In this document: piece after piece, positions 31,001 to 32,897 of the stretch
How positions within the stretch are numbered: the first letter of the stretch is position 1
How the letters are laid out: each line of letters starts with the position of its first letter
Notes under the pieces: generated by a model
The model's input: the letters and a program-made list of their open reading frames with translations, nothing else
What the model was told of the DNA's origin: nothing
Database searches by the model: none
Position numbers and translations under genes: made by a program
Assembly: GCA_937930175.1 (NCBI GenBank)
Contig: CALGLP010000006.1
Coordinates: 1,749 to 65,748, forward strand
Length of the DNA: 64,000 bases
Origin: an uncultured bacterium
GTDB lineage: Bacteria > Omnitrophota > Gorgyraeia > Zapsychrales > Aceulaceae
Direction: 5' to 3'

Positions 31001-32897
31001 GAGCTATGGCTATGACGAAGCGGGGAATCTTTTGTCAATTGTGGACGGCGTTAATACAGCGACACAGAGTTTTCAATATGACGCCTTGAATCGTTTGGTT
31101 CAAGCGCAAGGAAGCTATGGAACGAAAATTTTTCAATATGATCAGGTTGGAAATATTCTCTTGAAAGATGGGTTAACCTTTACTTATGGTGAGAATGGCG
31201 CTGGCCCCCATGCCTTGACTTCGCTTTCCGACGGGACAACATTTCAATATGACTCCAATGGGAATATGAAAAGGAAAATCGACCCCAATGGTATGCCCTG
31301 GGATTACATCTATGATGGCGAGAATCGACTCGTGGAAGTGAAGAAAAAGAATGTCACGCAAGAAAAGTATGGCTACGATGGAGACGGCGGACGCATCAAG
31401 AAAATTGCCTATGAAGATGGTTTAGCCATAATCGATCATCCTCTGATTGATTCTGAAGTCTTTGATGTATCAAAGTTTGCTAGGCGTAAAAATAGAATAG
31501 ATAGCAAGGAAGGTTATCGTAAAGCTGTTGTGACGAAATATGTTGGTTCGCTTTATGAAGTTCAGAAGGGAGCGGCGATTTGTTATGTTTATCTTGGGGA
31601 TATGCGTGTCGCCCAGATCAGCAATGGGCAGGTGATGTATTCTTATGCTGACCATTTAGGTGGGACCAATGTATTGACAGACCAGAGTGGCGAGGTGAAA
31701 GAACTCTGCGAATATTTGCCCTTTGGAGGATTTTCAAGACATGAGAAATATGGAACAAGCCAAGAAGTGGCGCATTGGTACTTTACCGGAAAACAGCTTG
31801 ATGAGAAAACAGGGTTATATTATTATGGAGCTAGGTACTACAATCCGCTCCTTGGCAGATTTATCACGCCCGATACGATTGTCCAGGCACCAAGCAATCC
31901 GCAAACCCTTAATCGTTATTCCTATTGCGGCAACAATCCCACAAGCCGTGTTGACCCGACGGGGCTTAGTTGGAAAAGTTTTTGGAAAAAGTTTTGCGGT
32001 TTCTTTGGCGCAGTCTTTGGCGCCATTCTTGGGGCAATTAATCCGTTTTTAGGTATGATGGCGTACAATCTGGTTGCTACTAGCGGGCAAGGTGGTAATT
32101 TTGGAAAGAATTTTGGCATTGGTTTTGTCAGTAGTTTTGCAGGATGGGGGATTGGTGTAGGGATAAGTAGTGTATGGGGTGATGGTTTTTGGTCGGGATG
32201 GGCAGCTTCTGCTTTTGGAGGCGCAGGCGCAGGAGGCGCAACATCTGCGATCTTAGGCGGAAATGTTGGATTAGGAGCTTTGGCAGGTTTGGCTGGCGGA
32301 GCGATTGGTTACGTGGGAGGGAGAGTTTGGCCTCTTGGAGCAGACGCTTTAGCAGGTGGTGTTTCTGCTGAAATTAATGGTGGAGATTTTAGTGATGGCG
32401 CGATGCAAGGAGCGATGAATTCTCTGGGCTCAACGGTTGGTGGTTTAGCTGCGCCAATGCCAACACTTGGATCTCAAGATGTTCGCGCAGGAGATCTTAT
32501 TTACTTTAAGCCTGAAAATATACTTACTGCGTTTATTTCATTTTTTGATGGTGGCATTTTTTCTCATACGGGAATTGCGATAGGTGACGGCATGATGGCT
32601 CATTCTACACTTGGAGGTGGCTCCCAGGAAGTCAGCATAGGTCAAGAATATTTTGCACGAGGAGCTTATGTTAATCACCGCGCTCGTGGAAATAGAGCTC
32701 TTATAGTCAATGCAAGCTTGACCGCTCATCAGAGAATTAGCTACGGTTTCTTTCCAGGTCAAAAAGTATGCTCAACTTTTAATGCAGCAGTCCTTAACCA
32801 GTCTGGCTATACAGGCTGGCAGGGAATAGGTCCCAATAGTCAGGCTGCAGGATTAGGATACAGCCAATTTCATATAATGAAAACCTATGGATATTAA
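25071..32897 (+). CDS. Giant Rhs/YD-repeat (teneurin/TcB-TcC-like) polymorphic toxin with SpvB N-domain, FG-GAP repeats, RHS core and YiiX-like permuted papain C-terminal domain
   Basis: Start at the ATG after GGAGGG. Signal peptide. SpvB-like motif GIPISVPLGRAGIQPSIALAYNS. At least 6 DxNxDGxxD FG-GAP units. Many YD repeats. RHS core ending RVDPTGL. C-terminal GDLIYF...SHTGIAIG...KVCST resembles YiiX/C92. Confidence 0.9.
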   Translation: MQKRRIFIALVVLSLIFSSPKLWAAASQEGPKSQQQVFSTEDKSQPAEQGFSLKKEQLSTSDAKSSPAALYEDRAFQSVERLDVDPATGTATVGIPISVPLGRAGIQPSIALAYNSSFSNGLMGMGWSLEFGKISRSTKYGMPTYTNTDCFVLTHSGSRQELVDVSGNATLFRPEIDDAFMKIEFVNGSYWRVTDKKGIGYYFGQTAASQIVDPSNSANVFEWYLDKVEDMYGNDMSLTYIKDQNQIYPYQIHYTGNTPGNLLPFATIEFETESRPDTMFSYLTRFLIRTEKRISAVKVFAQGVLQRKYQLVYSQSPMTQRSLLSQVIQYGADGVSSLPATTFTYQQGDKGFQVASGWNIPANAKFAEYQQGNRYADLGVRIADVNSDGYPDLLRYHQYSNGTTIRETFLHNKNQGWEASSAEWKFPASLANFLLTAPEIDKAFGLCLADVNGDGWVDLFRHFQDHPANAGGVITNQAFINNHVNGWDLDASWQLPEEGVLPINWVVSQSGYFYHEYTGNIIDDVNGDGFADYVKSKKEGFGPQAHMTFINKKPLAGGWTYNSAWNTQDSIYTDFAHGAILADLNGDNLKDIMYSKEGIIKVFINNGATWYEDDSSPWKNEFGYTNFSDGSTQCADINGDGLVDLIVSSDASEKALLNNGQGWVLDYAWVVPGNLKSNGTKLLDADADGMLDVVKHFNGTTPEVYLSRGKVPDLLVEMNNGMGGARVISYDSACHYNNDFFPFAAQVVQSLTLSSGDGDSYTTYYTYGHGLWSASKRESRGFGYVKVMEAEGNYSETYMHQDDIYKGKIDRQEHYDGSGNLFSKAVYQWNHQQLDPSVFFVYLEQVDQFVYDGNTTGVRTQEKYFYEESPQYGNATKTVQLGRVDLTTGEDMGVDSRTVEAAYHNNVESGHWFIGIPKQVIVKDDGGTQVRKSWFYYDGSNDINALPVKGALTKKQFWAGNDPGAVDPVTEYTYDPYGNLLTTKDPNNSVSMITYDTEYLLFPLEVKNVKDHVIVKDYYGVNGIPLDSGDGYRGLWGQIKSVKDQNNQKGNRTYDTFGRLVATVSPLDSLAYPTTSLEYEFLATGTKIVTHQREVHNNPSTIDSISFYDGLGRFRETKTKSGYLGQFVVSGQVEYNSRGLPQKKYASYFTTFPFHFADPIDQTVAHTTSVYDAMGRVVQTINPDGSYVTIVYDDMQTTTIDENGHKQVSFVDAYGRFIQMQEYVGADGRSSYYPSAPYSLYAETYYSYDSEGNLTQVQDAQGNVTSIVYDSLGRKTSMDDPDMGLWQYKYDPAGNLVWQKDALGREIVFSYDEINRLIRKDNNELLSVDYFYDGTSMGAQDIFFNDDGIASFSSTSDQAINGGLAIDGLRSNPPTPMSRNYGVGRLTKASYDASGQTRFVYDLLGREKSSIKQIDGINYQINRSYDAADRVTKVMYPDQSKILYAYNSAGQIDGIGSPGTNGFSDIKEDPATFKKINDLALRDQKNIYRKPVVISSHVPSFAQLLTQKREGEPKGRLNGDVSLSPVPLQPLQGIRQDYTISFTWSGATNGTYKLYTILLESDTGMYLSGAHDWGSTPPGPWTADNIDITTSSGSTTLVKDLEAYSTLLGYPIHHFIWLVELRRLIPGVTYNQDDPSTFYLDDSMHIHTTASVDPMLGLSVNPENPHPAVLAKYDFSLSWTNLPTNLGYDYRLFYTLLENMTGNYYTAAQDPLTGTSWAGGDVNMPDTLAFGNITASKELIAFSSAWGAPITSYLWVAQIRRVVSGQVYDPANPDTYVPVMEKIIPAQPGEGLDLSMSVNYYRPLVNAPKQHQISFSWTDAIPSFNDQIYDYKYYITILDADSNYLAATTTNGQWWTEMGNITQASPNTISITKDLTVHNNDGTAANTDRFIWIGEIRRYPQSSPATYTILSSIVETVGSKNFGSSIYVNNVLYNAQGQVVEIEYGNNAKTNYTYDPNNLRLMHLVTINAQNQFIQDLSYGYDEAGNLLSIVDGVNTATQSFQYDALNRLVQAQGSYGTKIFQYDQVGNILLKDGLTFTYGENGAGPHALTSLSDGTTFQYDSNGNMKRKIDPNGMPWDYIYDGENRLVEVKKKNVTQEKYGYDGDGGRIKKIAYEDGLAIIDHPLIDSEVFDVSKFARRKNRIDSKEGYRKAVVTKYVGSLYEVQKGAAICYVYLGDMRVAQISNGQVMYSYADHLGGTNVLTDQSGEVKELCEYLPFGGFSRHEKYGTSQEVAHWYFTGKQLDEKTGLYYYGARYYNPLLGRFITPDTIVQAPSNPQTLNRYSYCGNNPTSRVDPTGLSWKSFWKKFCGFFGAVFGAILGAINPFLGMMAYNLVATSGQGGNFGKNFGIGFVSSFAGWGIGVGISSVWGDGFWSGWAASAFGGAGAGGATSAILGGNVGLGALAGLAGGAIGYVGGRVWPLGADALAGGVSAEINGGDFSDGAMQGAMNSLGSTVGGLAAPMPTLGSQDVRAGDLIYFKPENILTAFISFFDGGIFSHTGIAIGDGMMAHSTLGGGSQEVSIGQEYFARGAYVNHRARGNRALIVNASLTAHQRISYGFFPGQKVCSTFNAAVLNQSGYTGWQGIGPNSQAAGLGYSQFHIMKTYGY

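Follow-up and report, generated by a model that had tools for sequence, protein, structure and literature searches.

The question raised by this locus is what the C-terminal tip of its Rhs protein would do to a target cell, and how the producing cell would be spared. The locus lies within a 64-kb stretch of DNA, referred to here as the window. With a probability of roughly 0.6, the tip is a membrane-tethered acyl hydrolase toxin of a Sec-exported Rhs protein, with its immunity genes directly downstream. Toxins of this kind are already known, and no new principle is involved; the two-part tip itself is unnamed. The carrier gene and the boundary of its tip are placed as follows.

25071..32897, + strand: Rhs/TcB-TcC-like polymorphic toxin gene (ORF list, translation, Pfam, public gene call)
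31953..31967, + strand: DPTGL, end of the Rhs core and presumed autoproteolysis boundary (sequence; boundary shared with 13 relatives)

Taking the Met at 25071 as its start, the protein has 2608 aa, while the mechanical ORF opens at a GTG at 25014; the public gene call for the carrier in GCA_036722365.1 is likewise 2608 aa. A Sec-type signal peptide (signal-like N-terminus MQKRRIFIALVVLSLIFSSPKLWAAAS) is followed by SpvB, an FG-GAP propeller, TcdB_midN, RHS repeats, and the toxin tip. The sequence-only reading had called this an Rhs C-terminal toxin, and the name is correct given the Pfam domains of the whole ORF (RHS_repeat, 1.3e-46; SpvB, 6.9e-30; TcdB_toxin_midN, 9.5e-17; FG-GAP_3, 2.1e-12); the strings it quoted all lie in frame and at the place given. 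Pfam searches of the whole ORF detected neither PAAR nor VgrG in the Rhs protein, and the window contains no TcA-sized reading frame (judged by ORF size, most other ORFs being unannotated). Export of the Rhs protein seems to proceed via the Sec signal peptide.

As read from the sequence, the RHS/YD repeats run into a conserved core with a DPxGL boundary (...GARYYNPLLGRFITPD...NNPTSRVDPTGL). DPTGL itself occupies residues 2295-2299, preceded by YYGARYYNPLLGRFITPD...NRYSYCGNNP, and the toxin start proposed earlier, 31965, is its Leu codon. The same kind of boundary, DP[ST]G[HLY], stands ahead of the toxin module in 13 relatives, and an autoproteolytic cut at DPTGL is predicted from what is known of the Rhs/TcC family. 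Other hallmarks of Rhs/TcC toxins are a variable toxin at the C terminus, a cognate immunity gene immediately 3' of it, and orphan cassettes; these too are found, the orphans in relatives. The presumed immunity genes follow on the same strand.

32887..33288, + strand: immunity candidate 1, lipoprotein of 133 aa; signal peptide ...FVFLGC, core weakly BamE-like
33278..33682, + strand: immunity candidate 2, a 134-aa lipoprotein, paralogue of candidate 1

The first 11 nt of candidate 1 lie within the end of the toxin gene, and gene calls on three public contigs include the identical protein. Candidate 2, a tandem duplicate with 56% identity to candidate 1, overlaps the end of that gene, again by 11 nt; its match to BamE is weak (E = 0.0021, below the Pfam cut-off). 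Homologous lipoprotein genes, likewise overlapping, lie 3' of the toxin in seven more toxin copies at five loci (L001, L002, L004, L008, L009), with homologues of candidate 1 following the toxin twice at L004, and the toxin copies with a trailing lipoprotein gene include orphans downstream of other Rhs genes. Judged from sequence and gene order, the downstream lipoproteins are probably immunity genes. Every immunity candidate in the family, the divergent L006 subfamilies included, carries a lipoprotein signal peptide, so neutralization would be expected outside the cytoplasm.

The toxin is rare and unnamed, with 35 relatives among 1.84 billion representatives, mostly from Omnitrophota, a phylum suspected of a predatory or host-dependent lifestyle. 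Orphan toxin tips stand behind other Rhs genes at L004 and L006. In the window, the tip comprises the last 309 residues of the Rhs protein and divides into two parts, a Gly-rich stretch and then an enzyme domain.

31968..32468, + strand: Gly/Ala-rich hydrophobic pre-domain, ~165 aa (composition, conservation, model)
32469..32894, + strand: C-terminal enzyme domain, ~140 aa (sequence/profile, models, fold searches)
32565..32567, + strand: predicted catalytic His2499 (H56 in domain numbering), motif FSHTG (invariant in 22/22; aligned to the YiiX catalytic His)
32601..32603, + strand: probable third triad residue His2511 (H68), 12 after His2499 (spacing shared with NlpC/P60 and PF05708 members)
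32742..32744, + strand: conserved Tyr2558 (Y115), predicted counterpart of the fourth active-site residue of NlpC/P60 enzymes (family alignment, hhalign)
32769..32771, + strand: predicted catalytic Cys2567 (C124), motif KVCSTF, at a helix start (invariant Cys-Ser; aligned to YiiX YCSEVV)

Profile and fold computations support the assignment of the domain as a circularly permuted NlpC/P60 enzyme. A profile of the family (22 sequences) aligns collinearly by hmmsearch with E. coli YiiX (2if6, E = 4.5e-4) and with 3kw0 (E = 0.004), and hhalign against four PF05708 members gives a probability of 98.75% over 114 columns, pairing GD with GD, SH with SH, the Tyr of SYGF with the Tyr of PYDF, and vCST with yCSE. 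A relationship to the NlpC/P60 superfamily had been proposed from the letters alone; these significant profile matches bear it out, together with that to the canonical enzyme 7cfl (E = 3e-6, with the Cys half and His half swapped). The candidate His and Cys align to the catalytic residues of YiiX in both the family-profile and the hhalign alignments, and the YiiX strings given in the proposal (GDIIFQ, SHTGM, YCSEVV) all occur in the 2if6 alignment.

Structure prediction points the same way. In the AlphaFold model, where the blocks of the enzyme domain have pLDDT 75-96, the Cys is placed at a helix start and the His in a beta-strand, as a papain-like core demands. The top five PDB fold matches in Foldseek (3kw0, 2if6, HRASLS3, and H-REV107) are all permuted, at probabilities of 0.90-1.00, with the LRAT/PLAAT structures 4dot and 7c3z at ranks 4-5 (0.90-0.92); Foldseek E-values are weak throughout (best 3.3e-3, none <= 0.001). 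In a viral structure library, YaeF/YiiX-annotated proteins and OPG091 fall within the top ten.

Membership in a named family is another matter. The window domain has no match to PF05708 (Peptidase_C92; gathering score, 27 bits) at E <= 10, and 6 of 22 relatives match it, at best with E = 0.0095; true members (P0031, P0033, P0036) and a YiiX fragment score 27-129 bits. LRAT (PF04970) reaches 12.3 bits (E = 0.22, cut-off 24.3), with weak matches in 2 of the 22 members, and neither DUF6695 (TseH) nor DUF4105 (Lnb) is matched at E <= 1 in the 22 members (Pfam). Since no Pfam gathering score is reached, and since the third residue is His rather than Glu, the family is, on the evidence of sequence, separate from PF05708 and from other named Pfam families. 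The original label, YiiX/YaeF-like (C92), thus holds for the likeness to YiiX in profile and fold; it does not hold for PF05708 membership or for the third residue, where YiiX has Glu.

The motifs lie at nt 32490 (GD), 32565 (the His of SH), and 32769 (the Cys of VCS). Across the 22 sequences, which are only 26-60% identical to the window, GD, H, CS, and G.GPN.Q show little or no variation; strictly invariant in the family alignment are G31, D32, H56, C124, S125, G142, and P145. Invariance of the catalytic His and Cys in all 22 indicates an enzyme under selection. The column of Tyr2558 holds Tyr in 17 sequences and Phe in 5, and hhalign pairs this residue with the Tyr of YiiX PYDFSF, which is Tyr115 (PMC3142127). 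His2511, at +12, corresponds in position to the second His of 7cfl (HVGIY.GNG..IHA) and to the Glu of the PF05708 members P0033 and P0036; this column varies in the family (H in 4, S in 7, D in 9, G in 2). The His always comes first, as had been claimed, at a distance from the Cys of 68 residues in the window and 67-86 across the family. The accompanying figure of about 80 residues falls away, the interval between the two quoted strings being 57.

What such an enzyme would cut is less easily read. A peptidoglycan amidase or endopeptidase like Tae effectors or MepS, cutting cell-wall peptides in the periplasm with the Gly-rich part as its carrier, is possible though doubtful; it is kept as a rival because the strongest single sequence match is the canonical cell-wall hydrolase 7cfl. 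The best Pfam and PDB sequence matches are cell-wall hydrolases (NLPC_P60, 7cfl, MepS/Spr, CwlO), canonical P60 enzymes typically show a His-x11-His spacing, and cell-wall toxins would also be compatible with periplasmic immunity proteins. However, these matches span the His half alone or need the halves swapped: NLPC_P60 (PF00877) scores 17.8 bits (E = 0.0033, His half only), under its gathering score of 23 bits, and the 10 of 22 family members that match it are all sub-threshold. The higher-confidence model leaves only permuted, lipid-associated structures at the top of the fold matches, and a long hydrophobic fusion is hard to explain on a soluble cell-wall enzyme. The S1 pocket of permuted NlpC/P60 enzymes is hydrophobic and was judged unfit for peptides, and YiiX was found with a bound fatty acid (PMC3142127). 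For TseH, long presumed an endopeptidase, phospholipase activity was found (PMC12994826).

The other half of the tip opens with an amphipathic SWKSFWKKF and closes with a conserved GADAxAGGVSxxIxGGDFxxGA...APMP. Gly makes up 25.7% and Ala 14.9% of the first 175 residues past DPTGL, and charged residues among the first 169 number just 5 K/R and 5 D/E. The glycine zipper described in the sequence-only reading survives as a Gly/Ala-rich stretch with 15 GxxxG motifs, though not as a zipper proper: shuffles of the same composition contain nearly as many (11.1 +/- 2.5, z about 1.6), so that the pattern is mostly compositional, and Gly-zipper Pfam models (PF13488, PF13441, and related) match neither the window segment nor eight relatives. 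The segment is moderately hydrophobic, unlike a set of classical transmembrane helices; its Kyte-Doolittle averages over 19 residues are mostly 0.3-1.4 and peak at 1.67, and a single 19-residue span attains the hydropathy typical of transmembrane helices. Membrane insertion is therefore best worded as something the segment may do. Conservation in relatives (63% mean column identity among nine, with 24 invariant columns, mostly Gly) argues that it is more than a linker. All 13 relatives that keep the Rhs-core end carry the Gly-rich segment together with the enzyme, which suggests that the two halves form one unit; the tips of these Rhs-linked relatives measure 308-326 aa in the 12 complete cases and 240 aa in the truncated P0022.

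It might be imagined that killing is the work of the Gly-rich helices, which would depolarize the membrane as a pore or ionophore, with the enzyme as an accessory or second activity. Parallels are Tse5-CT, EsxX, CDI ionophores, and the glycine-zipper bacteriocin Cdz. The literature describes Rhs tips that insert into membranes as well as toxins with glycine zippers (PMC9637101, PMC12744356, PMC5380434). The AlphaFold model, although of low confidence here (pLDDT 43-69), places seven helices in this conserved, Gly-studded segment, and at L001 a neighboring orphan Rhs tip (2266-3135) consists of 289 aa of Gly-rich sequence without an enzyme, followed by a lipoprotein gene of its own. Nonetheless this reading is unlikely: the invariant His and Cys speak for selection on the enzyme, no Pfam model, Gly-zipper families included, and no solved PDB chain shows detectable similarity to the segment, and the Tse5 immunity protein Tsi5 is an integral membrane protein (PMC9637101), whereas each candidate here is a lipoprotein carrying a soluble BamE-like domain. 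Pore formation and acyl hydrolysis by the same tip are compatible with one another.

For the acyl hydrolase reading, the course of events may be envisaged as follows. The Rhs shell would enclose the 309-aa tip and cut after DPTGL; the nearly uncharged Gly/Ala-rich half would partition into the target-cell membrane, tethering the enzyme there and perhaps aiding its arrival. The enzyme, with His2499, His2511, Tyr2558, and the nucleophile Cys2567, would most likely work at the periplasmic face, cleaving fatty-acyl groups from membrane lipids or transferring them. Its predicted activity is phospholipase A-like, as in Tox-Act1 and PLAAT enzymes, with lipoprotein acyl chains as an alternative target, while the two periplasmic lipoproteins would shield the producer and its kin. 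Analogy makes an acyl hydrolase acting from the periplasm most likely, in the manner of Tox-Act1, a permuted NlpC/P60 toxin that is toxic in the periplasm only and cleaves PG and PE (PMC12994826).

A further elaboration, with a slim chance of being right, is a self-inserting tip with two activities. Here the seven-helix Gly-rich module would enter the prey membrane unaided, perhaps perturbing it, and hold an acyl-transferase or hydrolase at the bilayer; analogy with Lnb and LnsA, which are N-acyl enzymes from the same branch, suggests lipoprotein acyl chains as a possible substrate in preference to bulk phospholipid, and the immunity lipoproteins would serve as decoys or competitive substrates. 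If true, the two-activity mechanism would be a toxin mechanism so far undescribed; likewise, if Sec export of an SpvB-RHS cocoon without a nearby gene for a Tc-A-sized partner is real, it would be an undescribed export route. Highly improbable is a role for the Gly-rich half in translocation, by which the enzyme would pass the inner membrane and reach a target in the cytoplasm, since the lipoprotein signal peptides of all family immunity candidates stand against it, even though the GxxxG region of Tde1 is proposed to act so (its glycine-zipper N-terminal region is needed for membrane permeabilization and entry; PMC10240207) and the cytoplasm is the usual site of action of Rhs tips (PMC12994826).

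Comparison with known systems places the membrane-tethered acyl hydrolase among several partial relatives. The YaeF/YiiX proteins (PF05708; YiiX 2if6, B. cereus 3kw0, poxvirus G6R/OPG091) provide the best collinear sequence and profile matches as well as the best fold matches, sharing the order of elements: GD strand, SH, Tyr, and Cys-Ser at a helix start. YiiX and BcPPNE have a conserved Glu64 as third residue (PMC3142127), whereas the toxin domain has a His that varies in the family; the His-to-Cys distance is shorter in the toxin family than in YiiX (79) or BcPPNE (105), and a family-specific G.GPN.Q past the Cys helix sets the toxin domain apart. In contrast to the housekeeping YiiX proteins, it comes attached to an Rhs shell and a hydrophobic segment, as a putative toxin with an immunity partner.

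Tox-Act1 (a Salmonella T6SS effector) and TseH (Vibrio cholerae, DUF6695) are likewise permuted NlpC/P60 antibacterial toxins; their catalytic His and Cys are essential, and periplasmic Tox-Act1 has an adjacent immunity gene with a membrane-associated product (PMC12994826). Both are T6SS cargo, whereas the carrier here is a signal-peptide SpvB/RHS protein, and Tox-Act1 is paired with an immunity protein of two transmembrane helices (PMC12994826) rather than with a BamE-like lipoprotein. His43 and Cys151 of Tox-Act1, compared by description only, are 108 residues apart against 68 here, and TseH is absent from the PDB matches of the family profile and the model.

LRAT/PLAAT enzymes (HRASLS, PF04970) share the permuted His...His...Cys order, the His-x11-His spacing, and membrane tethering by hydrophobic helices. 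Their Cys motif is NCEHF, against VCSTF in the toxin domain, and their hydrophobic part is a single C-terminal helix, against the N-terminal ~165 aa of the toxin tip. With the BC-type cocoons of Rhs and Tc toxins the carrier shares SpvB, FG-GAP, TcdB_midN, RHS repeats, the DPxGL boundary, a variable tip, the downstream immunity gene, and, in relatives, orphan tip-immunity cassettes; it differs from Tc toxins in the absence of a TcA-sized ORF from the window. Lastly, Tse5-CT, the Tde1 N-terminus, the EsxX C-terminus, and CdzC/D also bring a Gly-rich, weakly charged helical segment within a delivered toxin (PMC9637101, PMC10240207, PMC12744356, PMC5380434). The segment here has no detectable sequence similarity to them, its GxxxG frequency is explained by composition, and it is always joined to an enzyme domain.

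The stretch at 31965-32897 is, by open reading frame and translation, the 3' end of a single very long gene, listed here with the two genes that follow it.

25014..32897, + strand: Rhs gene as a mechanical open reading frame; likely start at the Met at 25071, giving 2608 aa
32887-33288: putative immunity lipoprotein gene 1; its start overlaps the toxin stop by 11 nt
33278-33682: putative immunity lipoprotein gene 2, a paralogue of gene 1; its start overlaps the gene 1 stop by 11 nt

The window matches the public MAG GCA_036722365.1, and a length of 2608 aa is also called for the Rhs gene on the public contig. 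The protein opens with a segment resembling a Sec signal peptide (MQKRRIFIALVVLSLIFSSPKLWAAAS) and has Pfam matches to SpvB (6.9e-30), FG-GAP_3 (2.1e-12), TcdB_toxin_midN (9.5e-17) and RHS_repeat (1.3e-46). Its core ends in ...YYGARYYNPLLGRFITPD...NRYSYCGNNPTSRVDPTGL, with DPTGL at nt 31953-31967, and the region of interest starts exactly at the boundary where Rhs/TcC proteins bear their variable toxic tip. Autoproteolytic release of the tip is presumed here from what is known of the family. The tip comprises a Gly-rich pre-domain and an enzyme domain, the latter numbered separately below (H56, H68, Y115 and C124 are His2499, His2511, Tyr2558 and Cys2567 of the protein).

Other features of the gene and its surroundings deserve mention in their own right. 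The Rhs region at 29688-30870 (aa ~1540-1935) contains three tandem inserted domains of ~135 aa each, sharing the motifs [IF]SF[TS]W..., Y[KR]L[YF]..LLE and [FY][IL]W[LVI].[EQ][IL]RR; in a whole-protein search taking the best stretch per family, this insert was the best-scoring stretch of no Pfam family at E <= 0.01. The relative P0020 shares this insert, and Laminin_G_3 or HINT inserts occupy its place in others. The relative P0023 (L006 213-6992) combines a HINT (intein-like) and two Laminin_G_3 domains within the Rhs shell region, C-terminal to which lies a tip that is a divergent member of the window toxin family (FNHTD...YCSQF). Just upstream of the Rhs gene, the 555-aa product of 22941-24608 has a hydrophobic segment near its N-terminus and no Pfam match at E <= 0.001. 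Directly after the putative immunity genes, and in the same position on three public contigs, 33807-34565 encodes a 252-aa protein whose matches to the lipid-transport families AsmA, DUF748 and YhdP are confined to their N-terminal part; its position beside a candidate lipid-targeting toxin may be significant or fortuitous. The flanks (14732-21788 and 43146-46204) are rich in sensor kinases and response regulators predicted from ORF translations.

The enzyme domain misses the curated thresholds of PF05708 (YaeF/YiiX, Peptidase_C92), PF00877 (NLPC_P60) and PF04970 (LRAT). With the last 165 residues, NLPC_P60 reached E = 0.0033 (17.8 bits against a cut-off of 23) over the His-bearing half of the model only, and LRAT a sub-threshold E = 0.22. 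NCBIfam matches to RipC (E = 0.017) and lactococcin 972 (E = 0.16) were dismissed as noise, and a Pfam search of 22 family members gave no DUF6695 (TseH) or DUF4105 (Lnb) signal. The family is rare. Among 5.8 billion clusters, word-indexed searching yielded two relatives with the domain alone and nine with the family alignment; when HMMER was run exhaustively over 1.84 billion representatives, 35 proteins scored E <= 0.001 (13 of them E <= 1e-10). The stronger of these are nearly all Rhs C-terminal ends or orphan tips; the weakest represent canonical NlpC/P60 repeats in tandem that align solely at the 'GDxxFF...SHxGIYxG' region, and three others belong to PF05708 by Pfam assignment.

A 22-sequence alignment (26-60% identity to the window) leaves G31, D32, H56, C124, S125, G142 and P145 invariant and G52, G144, N146 and Q148 nearly so, including a G.GPN.Q motif that is peculiar to this family and follows the Cys helix. 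Against all PDB sequences, its profile matched the canonical cell-wall hydrolase 7cfl at 3e-6 with the halves swapped, the query Cys region aligning to the N-terminal portion of 7cfl and the His region to its C-terminal portion, which directly attests to circular permutation. E. coli YiiX (2if6, 4.5e-4, over 110 positions including GD, SH and CS) and the B. cereus YiiX-family enzyme 3kw0 (0.004) aligned collinearly. The YiiX-like, His-then-Cys permuted order proposed by the sequence-only reading is thus borne out. Of the profile comparison with PF05708 and NlpC/P60 that it had suggested, the single-domain Pfam scores stayed below cut-off, but hhalign against four PF05708 members (the YiiX fragment from the 2if6 match, P0031, P0033 and P0036) gave 98.75% probability over 114 columns (pairwise E = 1.4e-16).

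In that alignment the catalytic His of YiiX falls opposite H56, its PYDFSF Tyr opposite Y115 and its YCSEVV Cys opposite C124, so that the candidate His and Cys fall on family catalytic residues, as had been anticipated. Their YiiX counterparts are His49, Tyr115 and Cys128 (PMC3142127). In the YiiX family the triad is completed by a Glu, which in P0033 and P0036 lies 12 residues past the His; at that offset the window enzyme has a His, H68. A His at +12 is the canonical P60 state, seen in 7cfl. PLAAT enzymes likewise have it. Across the toxin family the position is variable (His in 4, Ser in 7, Asp in 9 and Gly in 2 members), and a third residue is possibly non-essential in LRAT (PMC3142127).

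Structure models point the same way. The domain-only model reached a mean pLDDT of 74.5 and a pTM of 0.76; in the whole-tip model the domain (residues 161-280) scored 75-96 per 10-residue block and is predicted to form a small beta-sheet flanked by helices, one of which begins at the Cys. Foldseek searches of the PDB with the first, domain-only model retrieved 3kw0 (probability 0.99) and 2if6 (0.97), then MepS and HRASLS3. With the better, whole-tip model, the five top chains were all permuted NlpC/P60 enzymes (3kw0 twice, 2if6, HRASLS3 as 4dot and H-REV107 as 7c3z; probability 0.90-1.00), lower matches being noise. E-values were all modest, the best 3.3e-3. In a viral fold library, the top ten held 'Permuted papain-like amidase, YaeF/YiiX, C92' proteins and OPG091, the poxvirus G6R orthologue, beside unnamed proteins. 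Alignments and models together make it very probable that the enzyme half has the permuted NlpC/P60 fold, with a Cys/His/Tyr site that appears intact by alignment.

The pre-domain is of a different character. Gly accounts for 25.7% and Ala for 14.9% of the 175 tip residues next to DPTGL, and the first 169 include five basic and five acidic residues. Kyte-Doolittle 19-residue averages peak at 1.67 and usually lie at 0.3-1.4, making it moderately hydrophobic on calculated values. The GxxxG-rich, Gly/Ala-rich segment described earlier is present, with 15 such motifs, but the 'zipper' pattern is mainly compositional, since composition-matched shuffled sequences contain 11.1 +/- 2.5. A parallel to the Tse5 tip as a glycine zipper was set aside: PMC9637101 has no such wording and describes a membrane-inserting Rhs pore former. 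Neither the window pre-domain nor that of eight relatives matched any Pfam family, Gly-zipper models included; DUF637 'possible hemagglutinin' (E = 0.29-1.2 in two of nine members) was dismissed as noise. The Gly-rich profile found no true match among solved PDB chains, a racemase at E = 2.2, its sole match, being judged chance. AlphaFold, given a 23-sequence alignment, predicts with low confidence (pLDDT 43-69) that it forms seven helices of ~15-25 residues.

Because it is conserved across nine relatives (63% mean column identity; 24 invariant columns, mostly Gly) with a shared end motif, GADAxAGGVSxxIxGGDFxxGA...APMP, the pre-domain is, as judged by alignment, more than a mere linker. All 13 relatives that retain the Rhs-core end carry both tip halves; the 12 complete tips measure 308-326 aa, and P0022, which is truncated, has 240 aa. 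The two parts form one conserved module, with which lipoprotein genes co-occur. A word-indexed search with the Gly-rich alignment, its candidates dominated by low-complexity words, gave at least five relatives among the matches listed, from which the spread of the pre-domain can hardly be judged. An orphan Rhs cassette in the relative locus L001 (1760-3627) has a core-end remnant, ...GARYYDARLGRFITPD...DPTGQ, running into a 289-aa tip of solely Gly-rich hydrophobic sequence (weak Gly-zipper_Omp match, E = 0.064), with a 160-aa lipoprotein gene 3' of it. This cassette suggests that such segments can be toxins alone; homology of its tip to a type-2 pre-domain is suggestive only, through a 33-residue local match at E = 0.01.

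Downstream, the two lipoproteins are 56% identical, and homologues follow the same toxin subfamily in L001, L002, L004 (twice), L008 and L009, of which L004 is an Omnitrophica MAG and the last two are Omnitrophota MAGs. They share a GMTKxxV...WGxP motif; BamE matches are weak and below cut-off, and a Diphtheria_R match to the first protein (E = 0.062) was dismissed as noise. Divergent toxin subfamilies are followed by different proteins, yet these are again lipoproteins. Judged by gene order, the layout is the standard polymorphic toxin-immunity organization, and assignment as a toxin-immunity pair is highly likely. Both immunity gene copies open with a similar AT-rich junction over the upstream stop, as in a tandem duplication, and no orphan toxin lies between 32887-33288 and 33278-33682. 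In L004 and L006 the toxin module recurs as orphan tips located downstream of complete SpvB-RHS genes. Every such tip is paired with a small lipoprotein gene of its own, and Y1 transposase genes of the IS200 type adjoin or lie between these cassettes. The orphan copies span L004 7558-9777 and L006 7467-8842, the former split by a frameshift (7558-7977 and 7908-8621). Scanning one genome per species (185,579 species) with a closer 7-sequence family alignment found three loci: two Omnitrophota MAGs and a partial Planctomycetales MAG match. GC content is 0.48 in the pre-domain, owing to Gly and Ala codons, 0.38-0.40 in the immunity genes and ~0.41-0.48 in the rest of the gene; the contrast is mild and was not counted as a sign of transfer.

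How might such a tip act? Members of the LRAT and PLAAT groups act as phospholipid acyl-transferases or as phospholipases. The hydrophobic S1 tunnel of YiiX contained a fatty acid and was considered ill-suited to peptides (PMC3142127). Tox-Act1, a T6SS toxin with a permuted NlpC/P60 domain, exerts its toxicity only in the periplasm, where it degrades PG and PE to lysophospholipids, and has a membrane-associated immunity protein with two transmembrane helices; TseH likewise shows phospholipase activity (PMC12994826). This literature makes acyl-directed action the most likely, and since the immunity proteins are lipoproteins, neutralization would be placed outside the cytoplasm. At a probability of about 0.6, the enzyme half would cleave acyl esters or acyl amides, or transfer acyl groups, with membrane lipids or lipoproteins on the periplasmic side as its substrates, and the Gly-rich half would tether it to the bilayer and may help it get there. 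A peptidoglycan amidase, the activity expected of canonical cell-wall hydrolases like 7cfl, is unlikely given the same literature on the permuted branch. Somewhat less probable still, though compatible with acyl-directed action, is that the Gly-rich half is the main, pore-forming toxin, for which the L001 tip consisting only of such sequence speaks. Translocation of the enzyme by the Gly-rich half to a cytoplasmic target, for which Tde1 offers a parallel (PMC10240207), is very improbable with lipoproteins as immunity proteins.

On present comparisons with known families, the window tip is best classed as a permuted NlpC/P60 toxin within a polymorphic toxin system. Its enzyme domain is homologous by profile to the YaeF/YiiX and LRAT branch and is predicted to work alike. 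Permuted NlpC/P60 domains were only recently (2025-2026) shown to be lipid-targeting antibacterial toxins, in Tox-Act1 and TseH (PMC12994826), and the finding overturns no current view; annotation resources gain one unnamed toxin family and one unnamed immunity family. As described, Tox-Act1 differs in immunity type (a two-helix membrane protein, against a BamE-like lipoprotein at the window locus), carrier and His-Cys spacing. What appears to distinguish the window family is the combination of an obligatory hydrophobic pre-domain, lipoprotein immunity, an Rhs carrier and restriction to Omnitrophota-like genomes. The obligatory module, which is not reported for Tox-Act1, is reminiscent of how eukaryotic PLAAT/LRAT enzymes are anchored in membranes. 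The same enzymatic idea seems to have been recruited independently into the Rhs cocoons of an uncultured phylum, and the locus may offer a compact system for studying how a lipid-modifying enzyme is tethered to its target membrane.
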